From Curvularia clavata (taxonomy: Eukaryota): a stretch of 64,000 bases of DNA. The position numbers and the translations under genes were made by a program. Numbering within the stretch: position 1 is the first letter of the stretch; each line of letters starts with the position of its first letter. The notes under the pieces were generated by a model, which saw only the letters and a list, made by a program, of their open reading frames with translations, did no database searches and had not been told where the DNA came from. Location of the stretch: the NCBI GenBank assembly GCA_023920165.1, contig CP089281.1:1736001-1800000 (forward strand), given 5' to 3'. Positions 21,738 through 34,644 of this stretch are shown here, piece after piece.

Positions 21738-22758
21738 CCTTGCAACCTGGTAGGTATGCGCTTGAGTTTCCCTTCCTGCTCTTCTCCCCTCTCAAACCCA
21801 AGTCGCCAAGAAAAAAAAGTTCAACTAACAATTAGACAAGTAGGGATTACTTATTAACCTTGTGTAGCGTGTCTCACACCACCTCTTTCTTATCTTATCC
21901 TTGTATTTCCTTTCTGTTTCTCCAAAATTCCTTAGGTCCAAGATGCATGTGCCTACAAGGTAGGCAGGCATATCTACCAGCGCAGGGCTAGTTTATAAAC
22001 ACCCTCTTCGGATCTTCGGCACCACATCTGCCCTTGCCTCGCTTTCTCGTAAATCCCGCAGCCGTCCTCCTCCTCCTCCTAGAAAAGGCATTCTGCGAGC
22101 CAGATAATCATGTACGTATGTGGAGATGTGGCGGCCGGGGCGGGCCTGGTATATGCGGGGCGCCTTCCCACCAAGACCAGAACAGGCAGGTGGGAGAGAA
22201 AAGCTTATGCTTGCTTGGCGGAGCTTGGTTTGGCGCCTTATTTTTGTTGCTTGCCTGCGGAACGAGCGTGCTTATCTCGCGGGAATTTTATCGGTGCTTA
22301 CATGTTGGGTTTTGGGGAGCGGGGGTTTGGTGGTGACGATGATGGGTTGGTACGCAAGTATCTGAACAGTTGTGTCGATGAGGAGGCTAGCTGGTTCCAT
22401 GCGTAGGTGAAGGAGCGTTTTGATTTAGATTATTCTAGGTGCCTTTTGTTGGCAGGTAGCTCCATATGCGGCTGGTAAAGGAAAACGTCATAATGTTATT
22501 TCTGATCCGGATTAGTTAAAGATGGCTGGGAGATAAGACACGGGAATGACGCTAGGAATATCGAAAATGGCGAATTTGCTCTCATTACTTAACCATTGAA
22601 CCGGATAATTCTCATCCGTATTCTTGACTGTTTTTGCACATCTACAGCTTTTCCTATACGAGTTGTAATTTCTTCAGTAGCACTTGACGCCTCTACCTAT
22701 TCTCATCCTCAGCTTTTCCACAACTAAACCTATCCTCCCTACATCAATCGCAGAGTCC

Positions 22759-24263
22759 CTACTCCACCCCGTCCCTCGACGGCCTGATCCCCAACCCAGC
22801 TTTCTCATACGTCCCATCCGTCGCCACCATCTGCTTCACACTCTCCTCGCCCTCAACCCACGCGCCACTCCCCTCCCTCCCCTTAACCCTATTCACAAAC
22901 TCCTCCAGCATATACCTATACGTAGGCCACCAGTCCTCTCCCTCTCCCTTCTTATTTAGCTGCTTCCACGTATACGCCTTCAGCTTATCCACGTGCTTTG
23001 TCTGCTTGACAACCTCCTCTGAGCCACGCTTCTTAAACAAGGTAACTGTCTCTACATCAATCCTATGCCACGCATGCGGCCCCATGAAATTCCACATGAT
23101 GATTGTTTTCTGCTGCGTTTTACTCAAGCCACTCTCCTCATCTACCCCAAGCTCCTGGCTCCGCAGCCGCACACGCACACTCGACACCGAGTCACGGAAA
23201 CTAGGCCAGTTACTCGTAAGCCACGCAAAAGGGTATCCGCCCTTGGCACCTAGATCAGAATACACGCGTCCTGTGCCGCCATTGGGGAACGAGTAGGTAG
23301 CTCCCATGGCCTGGTCGCAGCGCTGGTCGTATGGCGGTGGAATCAGTCGCGGAGTAGCAGATACAACCTCTACGGGTTCGGCGCCAAAGACAGTGCGCAA
23401 GGCTGAGAGCGAGTAGTGGCCGAGATCCATGGCACAGCCTCCGGCAATAGTATAGTCGAAGCGAATATCGGATCCCGAGAAAAGGCCACTGGGGATTGCG
23501 GCGCGGGCCTCGGCATATTCGACTAGCTGCTTATCGAATTGAGAGAGAAAGAGGTGCCAGGCCGGGTGGAAGCGGTAGTGGCTTGCCTCTAGCAGGACGG
23601 GAGCGCTGGGGCCTTGGAGAATGGGATGGTAGAATAGGGAGCGTGCTTCCTGCGCATTAGATACGGAGGGCTTTTCCAGCAGTACGTGTTTTCCTGCTTT
23701 GAGGGCTGCGAGTGTGGGACCATAGTGTAGGCCGTTGGGAAGAGGATTGTATATACAGTCGATTGAGGGGTCCGCAATTAGGGCTATTAGGCTTGTTGGT
23801 GAGTGTGAAGGTGTGTGATATGATGATACTTTGACTTTGCTTTGGCAGTGCGCATAATCTGTACATGTGTACGTATACTCGTGCTGTACAATAAAGTCTT
23901 ACTACTCACCCTCATAACTATCGTGCACAATGGGAATATCCCATCGCTTCGCATACGCCTCTGCCTTCTTCTTGTCTCTCGCTGCTACCGCAACGACAAG
24001 GACATCGGCATGTGATCGTGCCGGAATAACCAATGCAGAGGGACTATTCGTGATAGCAGTCTTAGCTCAAGCTCCATTACTATGTATCCAACTGCATGAA
24101 GCCAAGAAGCCCAACTTGCAGATAGCAGAACCATAACCTACGCGATCTTTGCAGCCCCCAAAATGCCAAAGCGAAGTGCATCAGCCTTCTTCGCAACCGG
24201 CTTACGTCCAGCAGCCCATTCGCCAAAGTCGGTGACAGAATTGATCCAGTCAACTAATGTCAT
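22759..24263 (-). CDS. Gfo/Idh/MocA-family NAD(P)-dependent oxidoreductase, multi-exon
   Basis: LRFGILGAAKIA, YNPLPNGLHY, GKHVLLEKP, EASHYRFHP and GGCAMDLG. Confidence 0.88.
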
Positions 24264-27098
24264 GATGATCGGTGTAAGGTTTATAAATGGTTAGAGTGTA
24301 CGATAGTAGTTCAACGGAAAAACTACAGAGAGGGAGAGAGAGATGGGCATGGGTGCGCTACAATTGTAGCCGGCTGAATGCCGTGAAGCGGGGAAGTTGG
24401 ATCAACCACACATCGGTCCCGGTAAGACCAAGCGGTCCAATCCAAAGAATGCGAACTCCTCAACGGTCAGCCGCTTATGTATGCATCATACATGATACCG
24501 GTAAGCAGCCGCAACGTTATCATGTCTGCTACTCATGATGTAACAATGGCCGTGCCGTCTTGGCATCGGAGACGACACTCTTTCGTCTTTGTCCGTCTTA
24601 CTCTCGCGTAAGTAAGGGCAAAGGACTAAGCAGCCAGGGCTTACACTCGACTCGGATCTATAGGAAGCGAAGGATAAAAAAAGAGGCAAGGGAATGCAGA
24701 CGGAAATTAGTCTACCTAGACTACGGAGTCTCGGACCTGGAGATGAATTTATCGGCAGCGGACATGCACTGCATTGATGCAAAGTATACGCTGTAGTTAG
24801 TTAGCTCGCTTACAAGCTTGATGGTGTATTGAAGACGTGGCACGCCGCGTTGCAGGCCAGAAATAAGTCGTCTGCATATGATGAAGCGCGGGATGTACCC
24901 TGCAACACAGCCCCCCAAGACCAATGCAGATACATAGGAGTACAGGACGCCTCCACCGGTGGAACATGGTGTGTGGCAGCCATAATTAGCTTTTTCCAAG
25001 TTTTGGTTCGCTGCAGATAGGATGATACGACGCGTCGCGCAAGCCTCGCCTTGTTGGGAATCCACGCGAACCAAACATAAATCAATACCCGAGGCATGAA
25101 CCTGAGGCACGCCGCTCTCTCCGCTTTGGGTATGCCTATGGGTGGAGTTATCGCTTAGCCCAGCACGTAATGTCCGAATTAAACGGAGAGAGGGTGGGGA
25201 TGGGATGAGGCTGAGCGAACAGGAGAGCGCGAATCATGGGGCCAGCTGTGGCGAGCCTGTTTCAGGGTTCAAAATGAACGGGCGGTGGCGGGCAAAAGGG
25301 AGGAGACAGAAGACGGAGAAGGGAGGCCGCGTTACCGCATTGGACGACTCGCATGAACATGCCGTTCAGGAGATGCGGTTTGATCGACAGGGTCCCCACA
25401 GACTGCATTGAGCGTGGGAGGTGTGGGAGAGATATTGATCCACGAATACCTGAGTGTGCGAAACAGATGGCGCAACTGATGTGTAGAGATGATCGTGCTC
25501 CTTTCATGTTACAGTTTGAATCGTGCGGCCAGGTTCATCCCGCACTCAGGCAATGGGACGCGAAAAATTTGCACTTGGCCAGTTACATTTGTCCGTGGTT
25601 CATGTCATGGCAATGCCGACACTGAATGGCGGTGAATTTGCGGGATGGTACTGGGCAGAGTGACAATGTCCGCATCGGCGAAGCTTGTGAGATTGACGAA
25701 AAACCCTAGCCAGGTGTCGCCGAGATGGACGACGGACGGGACAGAAGCAGTACCGTGCTTAGGCCTTTTTCTCATTTGACACCCAGGTACCGTGCAAGTA
25801 GCTTGGCGTACGAACCTGGGGGATCACACCAACACGTCACATGGACGAAAATCATTACGGTGTAGCAATGCTCCGTGGGTGGTGAAATATTCTTCGACAT
25901 GGACGCAGCGGTGACAGTGTGGCAGAGAGCAAAATCTCAACAAAGAGCGCATCATATCTCGGCGACCCGTAACAGGCAATTGCGACTTTTCAAAACCACA
26001 AAACATTTTTGTTTTTTAGTGTACGTCTGTGTGCGCGTATGTCTTTCGTCTTCTTTTTTTCAATTTTTTTTCTTGAAGTAACGTGACAAGTCCCGGTAAC
26101 CCGGTTCCGGTCGATTAGACGAGGATGAAATCGTAACGGCGTCGATTTGAGACGATGGCAGGCTGGGGTGTACACACCGCTGGTGATAGACGTGGCAGTG
26201 AGTCAGAGAGACGTCGGCGCGGCTATGACCAAATGGCCGAGTAACGGGTTGAATGGAAGGAAGATTGGGCAGTTGTCTGAGCGCCGACTATGCGCTGCGA
26301 GTGTCTAGCGTATAGGACAACGAAGGCATCATCAGTCAGGGCTAAGGCAGGTCAAGCAGGGGACCCACGATCTGCATGCAAGAAGGTGAGATGTGGAATA
26401 CGGGCGTGAGTCAGAGCGATCTGCCAGGGATATTTGAGAGAAGCAAAAAATAAAAACATGTATGTACGTACTTTGTGCGTGCAGCGCGCCAAAGGAGTGC
26501 ATATGCATGGGATATATGCGGGAACACTTGCGTGCGAGGCGGCTGCACCCAAAGGCGAGTGCAGGCTTCGCACATGGCAGACACATGGGAAGGGCAGGAC
26601 GGGAGGATGCGTCCGACAATTGCGTAGCCAAAGCGCCTCGTCTTGGAGCGCTGCCTACTTCGAGGATGGATTGACGTCTGACGGCGCGCATATGTCCTGC
26701 TACGTTTGGACCCATGGGGGCCCTACAACGTCGTCTGTGGTGCAGCGAGGGGCATTAGCCAATCGCTTAGGTGCTGGCATCCGAGTGCCGCTTGCTTGCT
26801 CCAGCAATGCAAATAATGTGGGCCGAGATTGGGAGGGCGCATAGACGAGCACGAACGACGCCCTTTGTCAGAGAGAAAACCTGATTGATGTGCTAATCAA
26901 GGATTCTCGCAATGGACCGACTGGAGTCTCGTGTCGGGCAAAAGGCGATGAGGCGGGCAGGCGAGGCGGTGGCGTTCTGTGTTCCCCTCTCCCTCTCTCT
27001 GTGTGTGTGTGGCTAGGCCTGGTTGGCAGCGTGCGGCGTGGCTTTCCGAGGAGCATCAAACGCCGTCAGGGTGCTGTTCTCCGCCAATGCTAAAATAA

Positions 27099-27133
27099 CG
27101 TGCGTGGGTGCGTGCGTGGGTGCGTGCGTGCGT
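27099..27133. repeat. Short compound (GCGT/GGGT)n microsatellite
   Basis: cgtgcgtgggtgcgtgcgtgggtgcgtgcgtgcgt seen directly. Confidence 0.7.
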
Positions 27134-28610
27134 ACATAGTATGTGCGTGGGAGAGTGAGTGTCAGGATGAGAGGAATAGTGCGAGAACCGAAAGCGGGCT
27201 AGCGCCGCTGGTGCTGCAACCGCGGGACGCGCACGGCTAATTGGCCCCCATGGCGAGCGAGGGGACCGACAGTATAGGGAGGACCAGACAAGGACAGAGG
27301 GCGGCTACCGCAACACACTTCGGCACTTGATTCCACTTGGTCGTCTCGACGTGCAGACACATGGCTGGCAAGCTGGTGGAGTAAGTAGACATGTCTGCAT
27401 AGACAAGCGGTGAGGTGGTGCAACGCTCATAGCCCCATGGCCGCATCGTCGCTGAGTTAGCGGGGGGCTCGTACAGTGACGGAGCGTATGGCTGAGGACC
27501 TCATTGGTCTTGGTCTTTGTCGCTATACGCTGCCTCGTCGGAGACACGGCCGACGTGTTTGCGGGTTTCTGCAACGGGCTGGGGCGGGACAAGTGCCATG
27601 TATGAGTTTGAACCCATAACGGTCACGCGGAAGCTTTGGGTAGGGAGGGTGCGGGACAGGAACATGCAAAGGAGTGGGAGAGCAGCGTTGGACTAACCCG
27701 AGGAGCGCCGCGTATTGGCTGGCTATGCGACGTGTAACCACGACGTCACAAACGGCCCACGTGTAGTCATGCTGATGCGTTGCCGGAGTCCATGTGTGTA
27801 TGCCTAACGTCGGCTGGCCATGGCCGGCCCATCCATTGTTATGATTCAAGTGGTTGCACAGCATCTAAGGCAATAGTAGACCAAGATATAGTGAGTAATG
27901 TGATCTTAGATCAGGTTATTAATGCTATTGAAAATCAAGTAATTGGGTATTGGTTCCAGGCTACCGTGGTGCCGTCTATAGACAATAAAACTCCAAGATG
28001 AGAGCGAGTGATGCATTAAGCACACAGCCAAGTATACCCAAGCGCCAACTAATGCATGGAAAAAATATCAAGTCGCTCAGTATTACAACGATTGTGGTGC
28101 GTGTGCCAAATAAGTCTAGAAAAACATGCGTCTATCAGAGAAGGTTCATTTCCGTCCACCCGAGCCAGCGTAGTGTGTTGGATGCGAGAGCGTAAACAAA
28201 GTTGGAGGCGGAAAAAGCCCCAAGACTGCCCCGCGCCTAATAAGGTGCAAGGTGGTCCTGGCCAAAACGCCACGCGTGGGCTTTGAGCGAAAAGACCAGT
28301 TGTAGACGTTTGGTATCCGAGGTGGTTGATGATGATGAGAATGCGTGAGAATTGCGTTTAACCGGATATCGCGTCAAGTGTCAGGTGAGTGACAGGGGTG
28401 TGTTTCCAAATCCAATGCACCGAGAGCGTCGAGAGAGATAGTCGAACGGTACCAGGTGGTGCACACATGGCTTGTAAGACAGCCATGGGTGCAGGTCGGA
28501 TCGGAGCAGGTAGTCGTGTTACAGCATGTGTCTGGTCGAGGAGGCAGAGGTGGCTGCTCAGTCCAAGAGCGGACGAAACATGCGTCAGAGAAGCATGGCG
28601 GGCATGGCGT

Positions 28611-28715
28611 TCAGTTGCCCTTGGTAGGGACAGCGGGCAGAGGGCGGGTTGGTGGTGGGCCCGGGCATGGTGGAAGGTTCTGGGGAGCCATGATGTCGTT
28701 GCAGAGAGCGGCCAT
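28611..28715 (-). CDS. Putative 34-aa proline-rich microprotein MAALCNDIMAPQNLPPCPGPPPTRPLPAVPTKGN
   Basis: Good start context (GCA ATG G), C/A-rich 5' leader, TATA-like element ~160 nt upstream, UTR-like downstream tract. Too short for the ORF track. Confidence 0.6.
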   Translation of the reverse strand: MAALCNDIMAPQNLPPCPGPPPTRPLPAVPTKGN

Positions 28716-28873
28716 TGCAATGGTGGGTGGGTGTGGTGGTTGCTAGTGCGAGTGGTTGTTTGGTAGTTGGAGGGAGTAGCCGAAGCGGATAGCCTTTGGA
28801 GTGGTAGAGGAGTGGAAGCGAGTTTGGGTCGTCGAGTGTGGTAGGCTTGGAGGGCTAGCAGAGAGACAGAGAG

Positions 28874-28881
28874 ATATATAA
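28874..28881 (-). promoter_or_regulatory. TATA box for the microprotein gene
   Basis: TTATATAT on the minus strand, followed by a CT-rich tract (CTCTCTGTCTCTC) typical of fungal transcription starts. Confidence 0.5.
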
Positions 28882-29395
28882 CTCTTGTGGTTGGCGCTGG
28901 ATGATGAAACGAGCGTCGTGACAGTGGGGGCACAAAGTATTTATGCTTGTGCTCAGATTGCGAGGCCTAAAATGTCGGTCAGCTCTGTGCTTTGGCGATG
29001 TGTGTAATGATGCTAGGCAGGCATGTGCACGGGCCAGGCCGTGAAGGAGGCGTTGGGCTGATGAGCAGGAAAGGGGTGGCTCCTGGCGTGTGCATGAGCT
29101 AACCCAGGCCGAAACATTGCCTAAGCCGGTCTCTTAATGAGCAGGGGTGCGAGCAAACACGAACCCATGCGTTACCGCTTTGTCGTTTCATCAGCCTTGT
29201 GACTGTGTGATTCTGCCAAGTGGCCAATCCCGTCGCACCTCTGTCGCCGGTGTGGGATCCCGCTCGTACAGCACATCAGGCCGCTGCCTTGCCTATTGTC
29301 TGACATCACCATCATCACCTTGTTCCCTGCTGCTCACACTGCCCGCCTGCTAGTGCGAACCGTCATGGCAATTGAAACGTAGCACCTCTCCTATT

Positions 29396-29490
29396 CTGCC
29401 CTGCCCGGCCCTGCCCTGCCCTGCCCTGCCCTGCCCTGCCCTGCCCTGCCCTGCCCTGCCCTGCCCTGCCCTGCCCTGCCCTGCCCTGCC
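29396..29490. repeat. Pentanucleotide microsatellite (CTGCC)19, one variant unit CGGCC
   Basis: Counted directly; the reverse strand reads (GGGCA)n. Confidence 0.97.
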
Positions 29491-32035
29491 TGGGGTCCGC
29501 TGCCGGCTGTGGTTGCTCGTCGTCCTGTCTACGAAACCTTACAACTGGCCAGCCAACGCCAGCCAGCCCTTCTCTGCTCGTAGCCGTGCGTGTCAGAAGC
29601 TCCCACTCTGACACAAGCTGCAGACCCGGCTTTTTGCCCGCTCAATTTGCGACGTCGCCTGTCGCCCCAACGCGCATCCTGCCTAGCGGCCCATGCCCAC
29701 CTTCTCCCGTGCTTCTCCCACGCTTCGATCCAATTTCCTCGCCCCTAGAATTTTCCGCTCCACTGCGGGACACCAGCTGGCGGTGAGATGAGGCATGACT
29801 TTTTTCCGTCGCGCGCCCCTCTGATTCAGCGCTGCGAGGTCGACACGCCGGGGTAATCATGTTTGTCACGCTCAAATATGCTCGTAGTGCGCCTAGTATA
29901 CCCCCGCCAGGCTGAAAATCCGCCAGGGCGTGGTCCACTGCCACGTTAGCCCACGTTAGGCCATGTCAGGCTTATTTTTGTCTTTGTGGCCCATCGGCTC
30001 TGCACGACTCGTAATGCTGCTGCTGCCATGCAGCCTGACAAAGCGCCTCGATATCGCTGTTCGGCTGGTCCGGATGCATACTACGCTGCAGCAGCTTGCA
30101 GCCACACTCGTCGGCCATTCGGCTGCCGCGGAGCCTCTCGTACTCTCTCTCGTCTTTTCTTTCTGGCGGAGACATGGCACATTCCACGTGGTCCGACAGG
30201 GTTGCTGCCTGTGTGACCTTAATGGCCCTGTTTGATTTACATTCGCTGCCACTTTCTCCTTCCCCTTCACTCTCCCACCCCTGCGCCCTCACTATCTACC
30301 ATTGCCGGTATGCCGTGTGGCTGACATACTCTGCAGATGGCCCAAATCAAAGGCTGTGACCATGTGAACCGTTCGCCCTGTCAGGCCAACTGCACCCTGG
30401 ACGTGTTTGACACCGATAGTAGTATTATTGTGCCCAAAAAAACCTCGCCGTAGTGCTGGCCACCAAGCGAGCAGATCTACAGGGGCAGAGGCGTGGCCCA
30501 AGCGCACGACCGGCCAAAGCAAAAAAGCAAACAGATAGCCATGACACCATCGCCACCCCTTCTCTGCTCGGCAGTTGACGACGACGCCGATTGCTGAACC
30601 AAAAAATTTCCTCCCGTTTCAGACCAGTGGAGAAAAAAAATCTACGACGCTGTTACAAGTCGCCTGCAGGAGCGTTGTCTCCGTAGCATGACCATGGTTC
30701 GAGCAAAAAAGACGTTTGTGACTGTCTCACCCACACCCCCTCTGGCTGGTCCCGACGACTCGGACAGCGCGGAGAGGCGAAGAGCCGCCGAGCGTCACCA
30801 AATCGCCCGCCAGGGGGCTGCCGTCAGCCTGTTCGCTGCAATCCTGTCCTACCACCTGTGGCGTATATGCCCCCATGGCTGCGTGCCTGGCACCCTTTGT
30901 CCCCTCTGATCGCACTCACGTAACCCAATAAGCCACCCAGTGTGATATACCCATAACATTCGTCATATTCCCGGCCGATCGCCATGCAAGATGCATCGAT
31001 ATAGCACTGCAAACCGGCTCTGAACTCTATCCACCGGCCACGCGTACCTGCCAGCTCCCCAGCTCGTCTGCACACGCCCAAATTGCATTGCGCCCTGCAT
31101 CAAGCTGATCATGTCCACTGATTGCTACCATCGCGCCCCGAGGACTCCTCACCCTGACATGGCAATCACATCATCAGCCCTCCTGTATGGTCAGCCTCCT
31201 CATTCTGCCCACACTGCTGCAGGTACGCGCTCCGCTTCTCCGCGCAGCCACGCTTTGTGGCTTGCGCTGCCTCGTCTCCTGAAACGGAACCTCGAGCGCC
31301 ACCAAGCCTGGATCCGGCGAGCCCGAAGCGCCATTATACCCGCTTCTGCGTATTGCTACCAACAAACTCCAGACTCTACAAGTCGCAAGCCAAAGCAGAC
31401 AGGGCTGGTTCCAGACCAGCAACGGGGTGGCCCATGCCAAGGTCCCGTACGGTTCCTATGGCTTCAATGTCGGTCGGCACAACTAGACCTCTGTGCGTGC
31501 CATCTAGAGCCTTTGGTAGTGACATCTAGTGCTCCCGGACTACCTCAATCAGCCATGTACTACGCACATAGTACACACACCGTATGCACCTCTCAACACC
31601 ACTGCCCTTCGCGTTCATGACTCCGCCGGCACCGCGTCGCACGTACATTGTTCCCAATCAAACTTCGTACATGGACACTACCGATCCACGACATACAGGG
31701 TGGGTTGCACACATGCACAGTCATGCGATGCGGGTGTAGCTCGCGCAATACCTGTGGCGCACATTGTCCAGTCTGGGAAAACGTTCGTTCATTGCCTTGC
31801 GCCGCCCCCAATGCGCATGGGCATCGCCATGATCTGTGCCTTTGTCCGCTGGAATGGTAACACAGTGCGCCCACGTGGAATGCCAACATGACATGAAGCC
31901 ACTGCCATTGCTATTCGCTGTGCCGGGTCACACTCTCTCTGTTTTGGGAAAACCGTCTCGTATCGCTCCCGTATCCACACCAGCATATCGGTGTCGGGCA
32001 CCCACCACGTCGCGTGCTGGTGGTCAGTCTACTAT

Positions 32036-32991
32036 CTAGGCGGCGTCCTCGTCGTCGTCCTGCGCGTCCGCTACAGCTTGCGTCGAGACCCAGTTTTCCA
32101 GCATGGCCTGGCTAGATGCTGCACCGCTAGCTGAAGCAGTATTTCTCACCCCGCGGCGCTTCACCACCAGACAGAGAATACGCCCGTAGATGCTGAAACC
32201 CTCATACGACGTCCTCAGGCCAAGCTTCTTCTGATCGTCACCCCGCGGCCCCTCATCATCCCTGTCCTGTCCTTTGTTCTTGTTGCTTCGTGTCCTGGTA
32301 CTTGGCTCAGGAACAAACAGATCTGACTTCTCGCTTTCGCTCTCGCTAACCTCGCTGCAAGCGTCAGCTTCATTGGGCACCAGTCCGGGGCTTGTTATGA
32401 GCTGAATACCTGTCTTCGTTGTTCGTAGTCTTAGCCTCGGGGATGTCGGAAAGGTTAACGCGATCGTCGTCCTCTTCCTCTCGAATTGCTATTGGCTCTG
32501 CTGCATCTTCATGGATTACAACCGGTTCATCGCTAGTGCCGGTCGTCAGCCAGCTGGTGAGTTTCCCCGAGTTACTCTGAATGCGGGCCTTGTCCTTGAA
32601 GATCTTCTGCTTGGTAAGGACAGAGTGCCTAGAAGAAAGTTCCGTCAAGAATATTGAAACCTCAAAGTCATCTGGGGCAGGTTAGTCGATCGATGCCAAC
32701 TGCTGCTACTCTTGCTGGGTTTCGGCCACGGCGGCCTTGCAGCCTACCTTGAACCACCACATCCTTCACTCCCTTCTTTTTCGCTTTGGCACCACCGCGT
32801 CCCTTGCCTCTTTCGTTCTCCTCTCGTAGCTTTGGCAACACCAGTGGCCGTATCGCTTCAATGACGCGTGGTAAGGCCGGATCACCGCGCTTCAAAAGCC
32901 ATGCTTCAGCATCGGCCGGCCGATCTAGGTAGATGCGGACTTCGAGAACCGAATGTTTCGTGATGCGGAGGTATCTTCGAAGCGGAGCCAT
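32036..32991 (-). CDS. Fungal hypothetical protein, 2 introns
   Basis: MAPLRRYLRITKHSVLEVRIYLD...KKLGLRTSYEGFSIYGRILCLVVKRR; GT-AG introns with branch sites join three ORF pieces. Confidence 0.8.
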
Positions 32992-33209
32992 TGTGCATGT
33001 GCAAATCACAATGTCAGGTTCCCACTTGTTGGTAGTGTATGTAGAATAGAACTCAAATGTAGCCAAAAAGTAGGACAATCGACGATGATGCGTGTTCACG
33101 TGCGAGCGTTCCGACGCTAGTTCCGATCGGCATGCGCAGAAGTTCGTTGCCAAAGGCCCGCTCCGAGCCTCGACGAGCACACGACGTACATCGCAACGCA
33201 GCCTAAGTA

Positions 33210-34644
33210 ATGGTGCTAGAACTCCACGTATGGGGTCCAGCGTTTGGCCTCGCCTCGATTGAGCCCGAATGCATAGCCACAATAGCCTACTGCCAGCGCG
33301 TCATACCCAAGGGACAATGGTCGCTGGTCGCAGCGCATAACCCAACAGTCGGAACGACAGGTACTGGCGTCTTTCATTCCCCAAGTGGAGTATATCGATT
33401 AATACGTATCAGAAACCCTACCGATTCTCTTTGACGATGGTGTTGCCACCGCATCCGGGTTTGAAGACATTGTTGCGTATCTTCGCAACTACCCCACAGT
33501 CACCAACGACATAGATGCTGGTCTCTCAAGCTCTCAACAGACTGACCGGACTGCGTAAGTTAGCCACACACTGAGATCAAGAATCCTTCTCACGCGACTC
33601 AGCTTCAGCACCTTTCTCCAATCTACAGCAACACCATTGGTTGACCTCTCCCTCTACGTTTCCGCCGAGAATTACAATAAAACTACCTCGTCTGCATACA
33701 CGGAAATCCTGCCATGGTACACAAATTATACGGTCCCACCGAAACGACGAGACCTGGCTAGGAAGAGGACTGCACATATGGGCCTGGCTAGTCTGGATGT
33801 CGACACAACTGATGAAGAAGGCTTTGCGCCAGGCCGAGGGACTCCATCCTCGGAATATGAAGCTGCCAAACAAGCAGCTGGAATACCTACCGAGAACCAG
33901 CCCAGGTCGTTGAACATAGGACGAGGTAGGGGTCTTGGTGGCCTCTTGGGTGGTCAGGTGTATGCTGGCCGTTTCAGACTCGATGCTCTTTCGGCCCAAC
34001 TCCTGGACCCGTTGTCGGATCTACTTGGAAAGCACAAGTACCTGTTTCGTGGAGACCATCCCTCCAGTTTGGACTGTCTGGCCTTCGGGTACTTGTCCCT
34101 TCTCGTCTACCCCCCGGTACCTCAAGCATGGCTCAGGGAAACCATTCGGTCCAAGTACCCACGCATTGGGGCGTACATACACAGACTACACAGAGTTCTC
34201 TTCCAAGAGGAGGATATCCGCCCGGTCGACGTCTGGGCTGTCTCGACCGGTAAATCAGACGCTGTAGCAGGCACCACGCTACCCTGGACGGCAGCACCGG
34301 CAAGTTTTGGAGCCAGTGCCCTGTCTTGCACAAAGGAATTGCTGGGAAATCTTCCCGGCATTGCTACTCTAGTGCAACGGCGTACCATTGTCACCTCCGA
34401 GCCAATGATAGTTTCCAAGCGTGCCCGATCAGAGCTACCATCTCCATTGTTTCTAAACACCTTGTTTGGTGTTGCTACAGTAGCTGCAGTAGGACTTGCG
34501 TCATTAGCCATACATCATCGGCGGTCGCCTCGGGAGGGCGAGTTGATTTTCTGGGCACTACGCCCAACCAGCGGCTTAGGAGAAGCTGGGAACATTCTTA
34601 GTGTCTTCGCTAACAACTTGCACGACGGAGTGGGAGCCTTTTGA
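33210..34644 (+). CDS. SAM37: Mitochondrial SAM complex metaxin-like subunit (Sam37/Tom37), 2 introns
   Basis: MVLELHVWGPAFGLASIEPECIA metaxin N-terminus; GST-C-like PSSLDCLAFGYL; C-terminal hydrophobic segment. Confidence 0.85.

Follow-up and report, generated by a model that had tools for sequence, protein, structure and literature searches.

The 64,000-nucleotide (nt) stretch of Curvularia clavata DNA considered here (contig CP089281.1, positions 1,736,001 to 1,800,000 of the forward strand; hereafter the window) carries on its minus strand, at 28611..28715, an open reading frame (ORF) of 34 codons and a TGA stop whose translation is MAALCNDIMAPQNLPPCPGPPPTRPLPAVPTKGN and whose frame, ATG and stop are kept in a family of related sequences. 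An earlier, sequence-only reading had singled out this micro-ORF as a hidden gene for a proline-rich microprotein with a good Kozak context, and both the minus-strand frame and the context are as claimed, the latter being GCAATGG with a purine at -3 and G at +4. A second in-frame ATG, Met9 (28689..28691, minus strand, context ATCATGG), would give a 26-residue product corresponding to the 22-27 residues of most family members, and an in-frame TAG lies nine codons upstream of the first ATG. The core motif PPCPGPPPTRPLP (28635..28673, minus strand, residues 15-27) is present once in the whole window and, with the AVP that follows it, forms RPLPAVP, which fits [RK]xxPxxP. Neither a signal peptide nor a hydrophobic stretch is visible on direct reading of the family sequences. 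Taken by itself the micro-ORF is at chance level, as it is one of 62 ATG-initiated ORFs of at least 34 amino acids in the interval 24300-32000 (an excess over the 40.6 +/- 5.3 found in 200 block shuffles), and the local minus strand is 39% C so that proline codons are common. What lifts it above chance is the comparative and RNA data.

The RNA data come from public sequencing runs, 24 of which were listed as containing this stretch, with 8 holding at least half of the sampled words and one being recorded as RNA. Contigs of four runs (X1, X9, X18 and X22) were aligned to 22700-33300 and, as these are contigs, the transcript starts, ends and levels that they indicate are hints only. X1 and X22 represent spliced RNA, their contigs skipping the CT..AC introns of both flanking minus-strand genes (23783-23910, 24043-24142, 32354-32410 and 32671-32748), while X18 is the metatranscriptome with RNA on its record. 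A single colinear contig of X1 runs across the micro-ORF from 27893 to 29177; X18 has contigs at 28246-28956 and 27924-28105, X22 has one at 27892-28443, and X9, which derives from a relative with about 12% differences, has one at 28371-28639. Combined, the contigs of the four runs bear out transcription of the micro-ORF and span about 27892-29177 unspliced, with no splice joint inside 27893-29177 in X1, X18 or X22. No weight was given to absence of cover, which applies to X9 and X22 in 28718-29071 and to X18 in most of the gap between the flanking genes. Contig depth, higher over the micro-ORF RNA than over its neighbors in X1, X22 and X18, was discarded as evidence of abundance since depth cannot rank genes.

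At the 3′ side, X9 has a loose end consisting of adapter plus a run of T directly before 27892, and the contigs of X1 and X22 reach 27893 and 27892 respectively and go no further. The poly-T end has the look of a poly(A) tail on a minus-strand RNA, and 27892, where sequence conservation also ends, is a probable poly(A) addition site, to be taken as a hint and not as a mapped 3′ end. At the 5′ side, the TATA-like string TATATATC lies at 28873-28880, 158-165 nt upstream of the ATG, and is followed by a CT-rich tract (the two together at 28857..28880, minus strand); the string is kept in most of 12 aligned sequences. The TATA box and tract proposed some 160 nt upstream of the start are thus present as sequence, but as a promoter they are at most a candidate because RNA extends upstream of TATATATC, to 28956 in X18 and to 29177 in X1. 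Among the strain differences in the runs, G>A at 28635 is synonymous (Pro), C>T at 28718 makes position -3 an A, and the 1-nt deletions of X9, at 28603 and 28609, fall immediately past the stop; these differences fit a coding frame.

Additional contigs in the same samples resemble the window only over the middle of the ORF and diverge beyond it; their loose ends fall at 28692 and 28627 (X1) and at 28676 and 28639 (X1 and X22). Hand reading in the ORF frame gives Met-Ala-Ala-Thr-Ile-Tyr-Asp-Glu-Ser-Asn beyond 28692 and Ser-Lys-stop before 28627, and Met-Ala-Pro-Arg-Pro-Trp-Thr-Val beyond 28676 and Pro-Pro-Ile-Pro-Ser-Ser-stop before 28639. The samples thus express no fewer than two more small ORFs that share the core, each beginning with an ATG and ending at a nearby stop of its own; these are either paralogues of one genome or belong to other fungi present.

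Scanning metagenome contigs with a codon-degenerate pattern for PPCPGPPPTRPLP gave 84 matching loci, of which 83 are complete and one is cut by a contig end. The nearest in-frame ATG gives a product of 22-27 residues in 73 of the 83, of 30-34 residues in three, of 52 residues in six and of 91 residues in one. The subtypes comprise a 34-residue type A beginning MAA.IYDESNMASQNL, of which the window copy is a variant, others of 23-24 residues beginning MPAASF, of 24-26 residues beginning MPGSIKY and of 27 residues beginning MAPRPWTV (this last matching a divergent member in X1 and X22), and a 52-residue form with a long N-terminal extension. Several shared features were not forced by the search pattern. 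In all 83 the residue preceding the core is L, F, Y or I, and after the core come P or Q, one of V, L, I or T, and P; the C-terminal residue is K or R in 79 (K 69, R 10, H 2, A 1, T 1). The family consensus can be written [LFYI]-PPCPGPPPT-R-PLP-[PQ]-[VLIT]-P-x(0-2)-[KR]-stop. Two cysteines had been pointed to in the window peptide; Cys17, within PPCPG, is conserved family-wide, but Cys5 is confined to one subgroup.

The ends of the frame are also kept, keeping in mind that the spacing between core and stop varies from four to seven codons and that all three stop codons are in use (TGA 31, TAA 26 and TAG 26 among the 83). The frame is closed within seven codons past the core in 63 of 64 distinct loci, versus 3 of 62 and 10 of 61 for the other two frames, and an ATG is present within nine codons upstream in 59 of 65 distinct loci, versus none of 65 and 2 of 65. 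Wherever members differ in length inside the ORF, the frame is preserved. The sole locus whose frame is unclosed after the motif, L082:78-374 (minus strand), has a 99-residue ORF with the motif near its N-terminus and no Pfam match; judged on 638 nt of sequence, it may represent either a degenerate copy or a fusion.

Selection on the codons was assessed in type A, where 20 loci with a 34-codon ORF, both ATGs and 60-nt flanks reduced to 13 distinct sequences; the window copy, two codons shorter before the core, is outside this set. In these 13 ORFs conservation starts at ACAATGGC and stops at the stop codon, and the 60-nt flanks are unalignable. The mean minor-allele fraction is 0.45-0.53 in all three phases of the flanks, while in codons 1-16 it is 0.10, 0.08 and 0.17 at positions 1, 2 and 3, and in codons 30-34 it is 0.05, 0.03 and 0.40. 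Over the 20 unforced codons the ratio of nonsynonymous to synonymous substitution rates (dN/dS; Nei-Gojobori, pooled over 78 non-independent pairs) is 0.23 in frame versus 1.14 and 1.24 when the frame is shifted by one or two bases. The codon-level conservation whose absence would have counted against a gene is therefore present, and the pattern indicates that the micro-ORF is under purifying selection at the amino-acid level. That the peptide is translated we infer from this selection, the AUG-free leader described next being no more than indirect support.

The leader and the tail have their own patterns. Upstream of the micro-ORF the nearest minus-strand ATG is at 29024, leaving 28716..29023 as an AUG-free leader. 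Among the 51 distinct loci with at least 400 nt upstream (the other 15 of 66 were dropped because their flanks were too short or because no ATG came within 40 codons), the ATG-free run before the start is 273 nt long at the median (quartiles 230-317, minimum 98), compared with a median of 67.5 nt in their own shuffles and a run of 24 nt past the stop; 16 of the 51 loci individually exceed 95% of their own shuffles. Within and beyond the leader is a conserved non-coding block, 28893..29278 (minus strand), that may be promoter or 5′ leader and has about 80% identity over some 390 nt to type-A loci, being better conserved than the micro-ORF itself (against loci such as L008, L053 and L029). It includes the invariant strings CATAAATAC (28937-28945), GTTTCATCA (28902-28910) and GCGATGTTTCGGC, and keeps no frame because 1-nt indels are located inside its best-conserved parts.

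The long untranslated tail that the sequence-only reading had anticipated is real, extending for 719 nt (27892..28610, minus strand) from the stop to the RNA end, with RNA contigs across it, conserved islands and indels that are not multiples of three; its conservation ends with the RNA at 27892. It contains UGUAAUACU (28079-28087), which we take to be PUF-site-like, and, near the RNA end, the hairpin-like invariant palindrome UGAUCUAAGAUCA (27901-27913). Further segments of the window that align to type-A loci are 28353-28397 at 84-87% and 27870-28183 at about 70%, together with the small blocks 29643-29716 and 27713-27764. The small blocks contain CACGTG, TGACGTC, GACGTC and CCAAT strings, of which CACGTG, TGACGTC and CCAAT are presumably E-box, cAMP-response element (CRE)-like and CCAAT sites. 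Alifold gave no structure signal in the part of the upstream block that it covered (z = -1.4), and its z-score in the distal tail was -3.6. A conserved RNA structure was nevertheless rejected as covariation is without support, the RNAalifold covariation term for the tail being +0.92 with compensatory change in just 3 of 29 pairs, and Rfam gave no match at E up to 1 over 24000-33000.

Among named organisms, a phmmer search of the peptide against 1.84 billion representative proteins gave seven matches at E up to 0.001, and a word search among longer proteins gave five that contain the peptide, one of them additional, making eight relatives found without forcing the motif. All eight retain PPCPGPPPT-x-PLP, cysteine included. 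Six of the eight are models of 103-177 residues whose N-terminal parts match different frames of the window's upstream DNA, and because of this the extended N-termini can be regarded as read-through artefacts; in the Bipolaris and Pyrenophora models the peptide makes up the C-terminal 34-36 residues. The annotated relatives are 34-residue stand-alone hypothetical proteins of Alternaria (KAB2107544.1, RYN30834.1, RYN31254.1 and RYN52166.1), hypothetical proteins of Bipolaris sorokiniana and Bipolaris zeicola (KAF5850945.1 and EUC29561.1/XP_007716134.1) and PTRG_07217 of Pyrenophora tritici-repentis. The commonest type-A metagenome peptide is identical to the 34-residue hypothetical protein of Alternaria sect. 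Alternaria. An exact look-up in a collection of 15 billion proteins found one of 20 distinct family peptides as a called protein and, with the Bipolaris and Pyrenophora models fused to spurious N-termini, the expectation that standard gene callers would miss such a gene has largely held.

Distribution beyond these genera is indicated by the MPGSIKY subtype, which is located about 1 kb upstream of, and on the same strand as, a mitochondrial Ile-tRNA synthetase gene (L014 and L003; L031 and L071). The N-terminal 217 residues of that synthetase have at most 69% identity to any listed protein; the closest named fungi are Trichodelitschia (64%), Sarea (63%), Xylona (62%), Didymella (61%) and Periconia (60%), the last two being Pleosporales, and a 68% match is filed under a plant name. 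These identities place the carrier in the Pezizomycotina outside the Pleosporales, and the family thus extends beyond a single order. Of 23 flanking frames at other loci, 21 have no Pfam domain and the two with matches are the same Ile-tRNA synthetase.

Searches for anything already named were negative. Pfam gave no family for seven family peptides at E up to 10, no PDB chain matches the peptide, the ESM Atlas has the Alternaria peptide with neither look-alike nor model, and a word-index search of proteins of 23-76 residues gave no candidate for the 43-residue stop-to-stop frame. Searches of the main texts of papers found none that prints 8-11 residue pieces of the peptide and none that prints the locus tags. 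The main text of a survey of conserved small ORFs in 31 fungal genomes is without mention of proline, SH3, Alternaria or Dothideomycetes. This is a new, unnamed family within a known kind, the conserved small-ORF microproteins.

On these comparisons a protein-coding microprotein gene is very probably real, the claim of a hidden gene being borne out by transcription, by the conserved frame, ATG and stop, by the in-frame dN/dS of 0.23 and by the AUG-free leader. What the product does is a matter of lesser confidence. The best overall explanation, which we regard as reasonably probable, is that an unspliced polyadenylated mRNA encodes a free polyproline-II docking microprotein, with an SH3 domain as the likeliest partner. 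In this explanation the locus is an independent minus-strand transcription unit, its unspliced and polyadenylated mRNA being roughly 1.0-1.3 kb long, and the sole conserved frame of this mRNA encodes the 34-residue peptide, or one of 26 residues from the second AUG, a member of an unnamed Pezizomycotina family of microproteins of 22-35 residues. A free docking peptide for a proline-recognition domain is suggested because there is no signal peptide, hydrophobic segment or fold, and a class I type SH3 domain is the likeliest partner because RPLPP[VL]P matches the consensus. The peptide may compete with, or bridge, the natural ligand of that SH3 domain, acting as a competitor or as a small adaptor, and its PPP and PGP runs would make its synthesis eIF5A-dependent. 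For the peptide being the ligand of a proline-recognition domain the chances appear evenly balanced; that the domain is specifically SH3 is a tentative proposal to which we would give somewhat less than even weight.

The match to the class I SH3 consensus that had been claimed as RPLPxxP holds as a pattern for the window copy, whose RPLPAVP fits [RK]xxPxxP, and the pattern is present also, by construction, in the 84 pattern-selected loci. RPLPPVP occurs in the family, and subtype B carries exactly RPLPPLP, the Src-type optimum SH3 ligand. With the trailing x-K the segment is also readable as a class II PxxPxK site. A known counterpart is in yeast, where the Pbs2 motif KPLPPLP binds the Sho1 SH3 domain (PMC4904012). 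The longer Pbs2 segment bound there, VNKPLPPLPVAG (PDB 2VKN), has the heptad [RK]-P-L-P-P-[LV]-P in common with the family, and RPLPPLP of subtype B differs from KPLPPLP of Pbs2 by one conservative change, K to R (PMC4904012). In contrast to the known class I SH3 ligands, which are short motifs inside large proteins, the motif of this predicted ligand is nearly the whole product, and a second invariant proline segment, PPCPGPPPT, flanks the heptad. The Pfam scan found no SH3 gene within the window.

Several observations weigh against a free SH3-docking peptide, or against the peptide being the only thing that matters at the locus. The search pattern itself imposes the invariant core of the 84 loci, and of the eight relatives found without that pattern the arginine between PPCPGPPPT and PLP is kept in only four, being Gly in two (both Bipolaris) and Cys in two (one of them Pyrenophora); the relatives lacking Arg are the closest to the window copy, which itself has Ala (RPLPAVP) where the family has Pro. 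The invariant stretch of about 16 residues is longer than the approximately seven needed by SH3, and given its length the partner could be another, or a composite, domain. An RNA starting at or beyond 29177 would place four upstream AUGs before the micro-ORF. Variation at third positions is lower in codons 1-16 (0.17) than in the core (0.30) or the flanks (about 0.5), and this, taken with the conserved untranslated and upstream blocks, leaves room for a role at the RNA level. As a separate observation, each Arg to Gly or Arg to Cys replacement (P0003, P0004, P0006 and P0009) is one base change of a CGN codon.

A functional microprotein that acts outside proline-recognition domains altogether, whether as a complex subunit or cofactor or through its invariant Cys-Pro in redox chemistry, metal or heme binding or as a lipidation tether, is improbable, though it would account for the segment PPCPGPPPT being outside the RxxPxxP heptad and for cysteine being kept in all eight unforced relatives when arginine is not. 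No family, fold or solved relative constrains the function. Against it, the peptide has no hydrophobic or structured part and its proline motifs are the only recognizable features, the conserved cysteine is single, and there is neither a CAAX nor any other terminal lipidation signal. The synthesis of the peptide, instead of the peptide itself, would be what counts if the frame encoded a cis-acting stalling peptide sensing eIF5A or polyamines on a bifunctional or sensor RNA, with the conserved untranslated parts doing the work. PPP and PGP runs are known ribosome stall sites, a peptide of 22-27 residues (73 of 83) would barely clear the ribosome tunnel, the tail and upstream block have unusually conserved non-coding islands, and synonymous variation is reduced in codons 1-16. 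Yet such a peptide would have no main ORF downstream to regulate; the distance from core to stop varies by up to three codons, three stop codons are used and the 52-residue subtype is extended, and for RNA structure there is no covariation support or Rfam match, so that this role is decidedly improbable. An upstream ORF was in any case rejected, the tail having many indels that are not multiples of three and the RNA ending at about 27892, and the downstream open frames of 130-240 codons in other subtypes were rejected as a main ORF since similarity hops between frames.

In its size of 23-35 residues, its dedicated and apparently abundant transcript and its long 3′ tail the gene resembles those for fungal lipopeptide pheromone or MSDIN-type precursors, but that the product is the precursor of a secreted or modified peptide, pheromone-like or a ribosomally made natural product, is very improbable when the family has no signal peptide, CAAX or dibasic processing site, when an invariant core with a variable leader is the reverse of known precursor families, and when no maturation enzyme is nearby in the window and flanking frames elsewhere are almost all without Pfam domains. 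A lipopeptide pheromone precursor in particular was rejected, there being no CAAX box in 83 loci and the only conserved cysteine being internal. For a purely non-coding RNA gene, with the ORF conserved merely as part of an RNA element, the transcript does have the look of a long non-coding RNA (about 1 kb, no long ORF), and the conservation of its non-coding blocks equals or exceeds that of the ORF. This has at best a slender chance and is largely refuted already, in that third positions vary two to ten times more than first and second ones inside the ORF only, dN/dS is below one solely in frame, subtypes with unalignable flanks nonetheless keep ATG and stop in fixed positions, the leader is AUG-free, and ORF indels preserve the frame when 1-nt indels of the tail come directly past the stop. 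That the ORF arose by chance on a C-rich strand, or that it is the final exon of some larger unrecognized protein, is hardly credible, even with 62 comparable ORFs in the gap, 39% C on the strand and some database models extending upstream; the family evidence contradicts chance, and a stop is in frame nine codons upstream, the RNA contigs follow the genome colinearly through the ORF and the DNA upstream of it, and the N-termini of the extended models are different frames of the window that are unconserved as protein.

The hypothetical proteins of Pleosporales belong to the same family and are without name, domain or function, the longer models adding read-through N-termini. The Drosophila pri/tal peptides, of 11-32 residues with one short motif, are encoded by a polyadenylated RNA of about 1 kb that has no long ORF and was missed by annotation; the fungal case is alike in having a tiny conserved motif peptide on an RNA resembling a long non-coding one, but it is monocistronic, is fungal and has an unrelated proline-rich motif. 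The fungal arginine attenuator peptide is encoded by an upstream ORF that precedes the main ORF of the same mRNA. It and the micro-ORF are both frames of 20-30 codons with amino-acid conservation across Pezizomycotina, whereas the micro-ORF RNA ends 719 nt past the stop with no conserved downstream frame. Neurospora mfa-1, a fungal lipopeptide pheromone precursor gene, also has a very short ORF in a dedicated transcript with a long 3′ untranslated tail; the ORF and tail are alike, but in contrast to a CAAX ending the micro-ORF family ends in K or R in 79 of 83.

Provided that the peptide is made, fungi have here a widely conserved gene family, almost never reported by standard annotation and, where reported, often fused to spurious sequence, present in plant-associated Alternaria, Bipolaris and Pyrenophora and in at least one distant Pezizomycotina lineage. 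If it is essentially a single optimized docking motif, it would illustrate cleanly how a free short linear motif can regulate in nature, and a synthetic 24-mer would be an easy handle with which to find, and perturb, the partner. Selection would be acting in what appears as empty intergenic DNA on an ORF of 105 nt, an AUG-free leader, a block of about 390 nt at about 80% identity and a patterned 3′ tail. A more far-reaching proposal, speculative and rather unlikely in its entirety, is that filamentous ascomycetes have abundant 'motif-only' microproteins in which an optimized Sho1/Pbs2-type SH3 docking site and a second proline clamp competitively regulate one step of SH3 signaling or actin assembly, gated by a conserved stress-type promoter and by eIF5A. 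Were it true, there would be a built-in peptide-decoy layer of signaling control hidden by annotation.

The surroundings are those of a filamentous-ascomycete chromosome, the window having HET, NACHT-WD40, Pil1, Sla2, Slu7 and family-B DNA polymerase genes. The gap of about 7.7 kb in which the micro-ORF is located is bordered on one side by a GFO/IDH/MocA oxidoreductase gene (22762-23898 plus upstream exons, minus strand) and on the other by genes at 32039-33300 (minus strand) and 33559-34641 (plus strand). The description of the micro-ORF as the only credible coding unit in about 7.8 kb does not stand as worded, for the gap carries other spliced RNAs, none with a Pfam match. A plus-strand spliced RNA at 30858-31693, found in relatives (an X9 joint at 31219-31370, GT..AG, with the cut 3 further right, and X22 contigs), has a 150-nt intron that is in frame within an ORF at 31111-31620 (169 residues). 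An X1 contig extends from 27637 down into the GFO/IDH/MocA gene (to 23910) with an extra 48-nt minus-strand intron at 24597-24644, which points to either a leader some 3.4 kb long or a non-coding RNA lying upstream. Just upstream of the 27637 start of that contig is the conserved CACGTG / TGACGTC / CCAAT cluster (27713-27764). Between the conserved upstream blocks is a perfect-looking (CTGCC)x19 microsatellite, at 29396-29490, where the contigs of the runs are cut. The guanine-cytosine (GC) skew switches sign near 29000, being positive over 25000-29000 and negative over 29000-33000.

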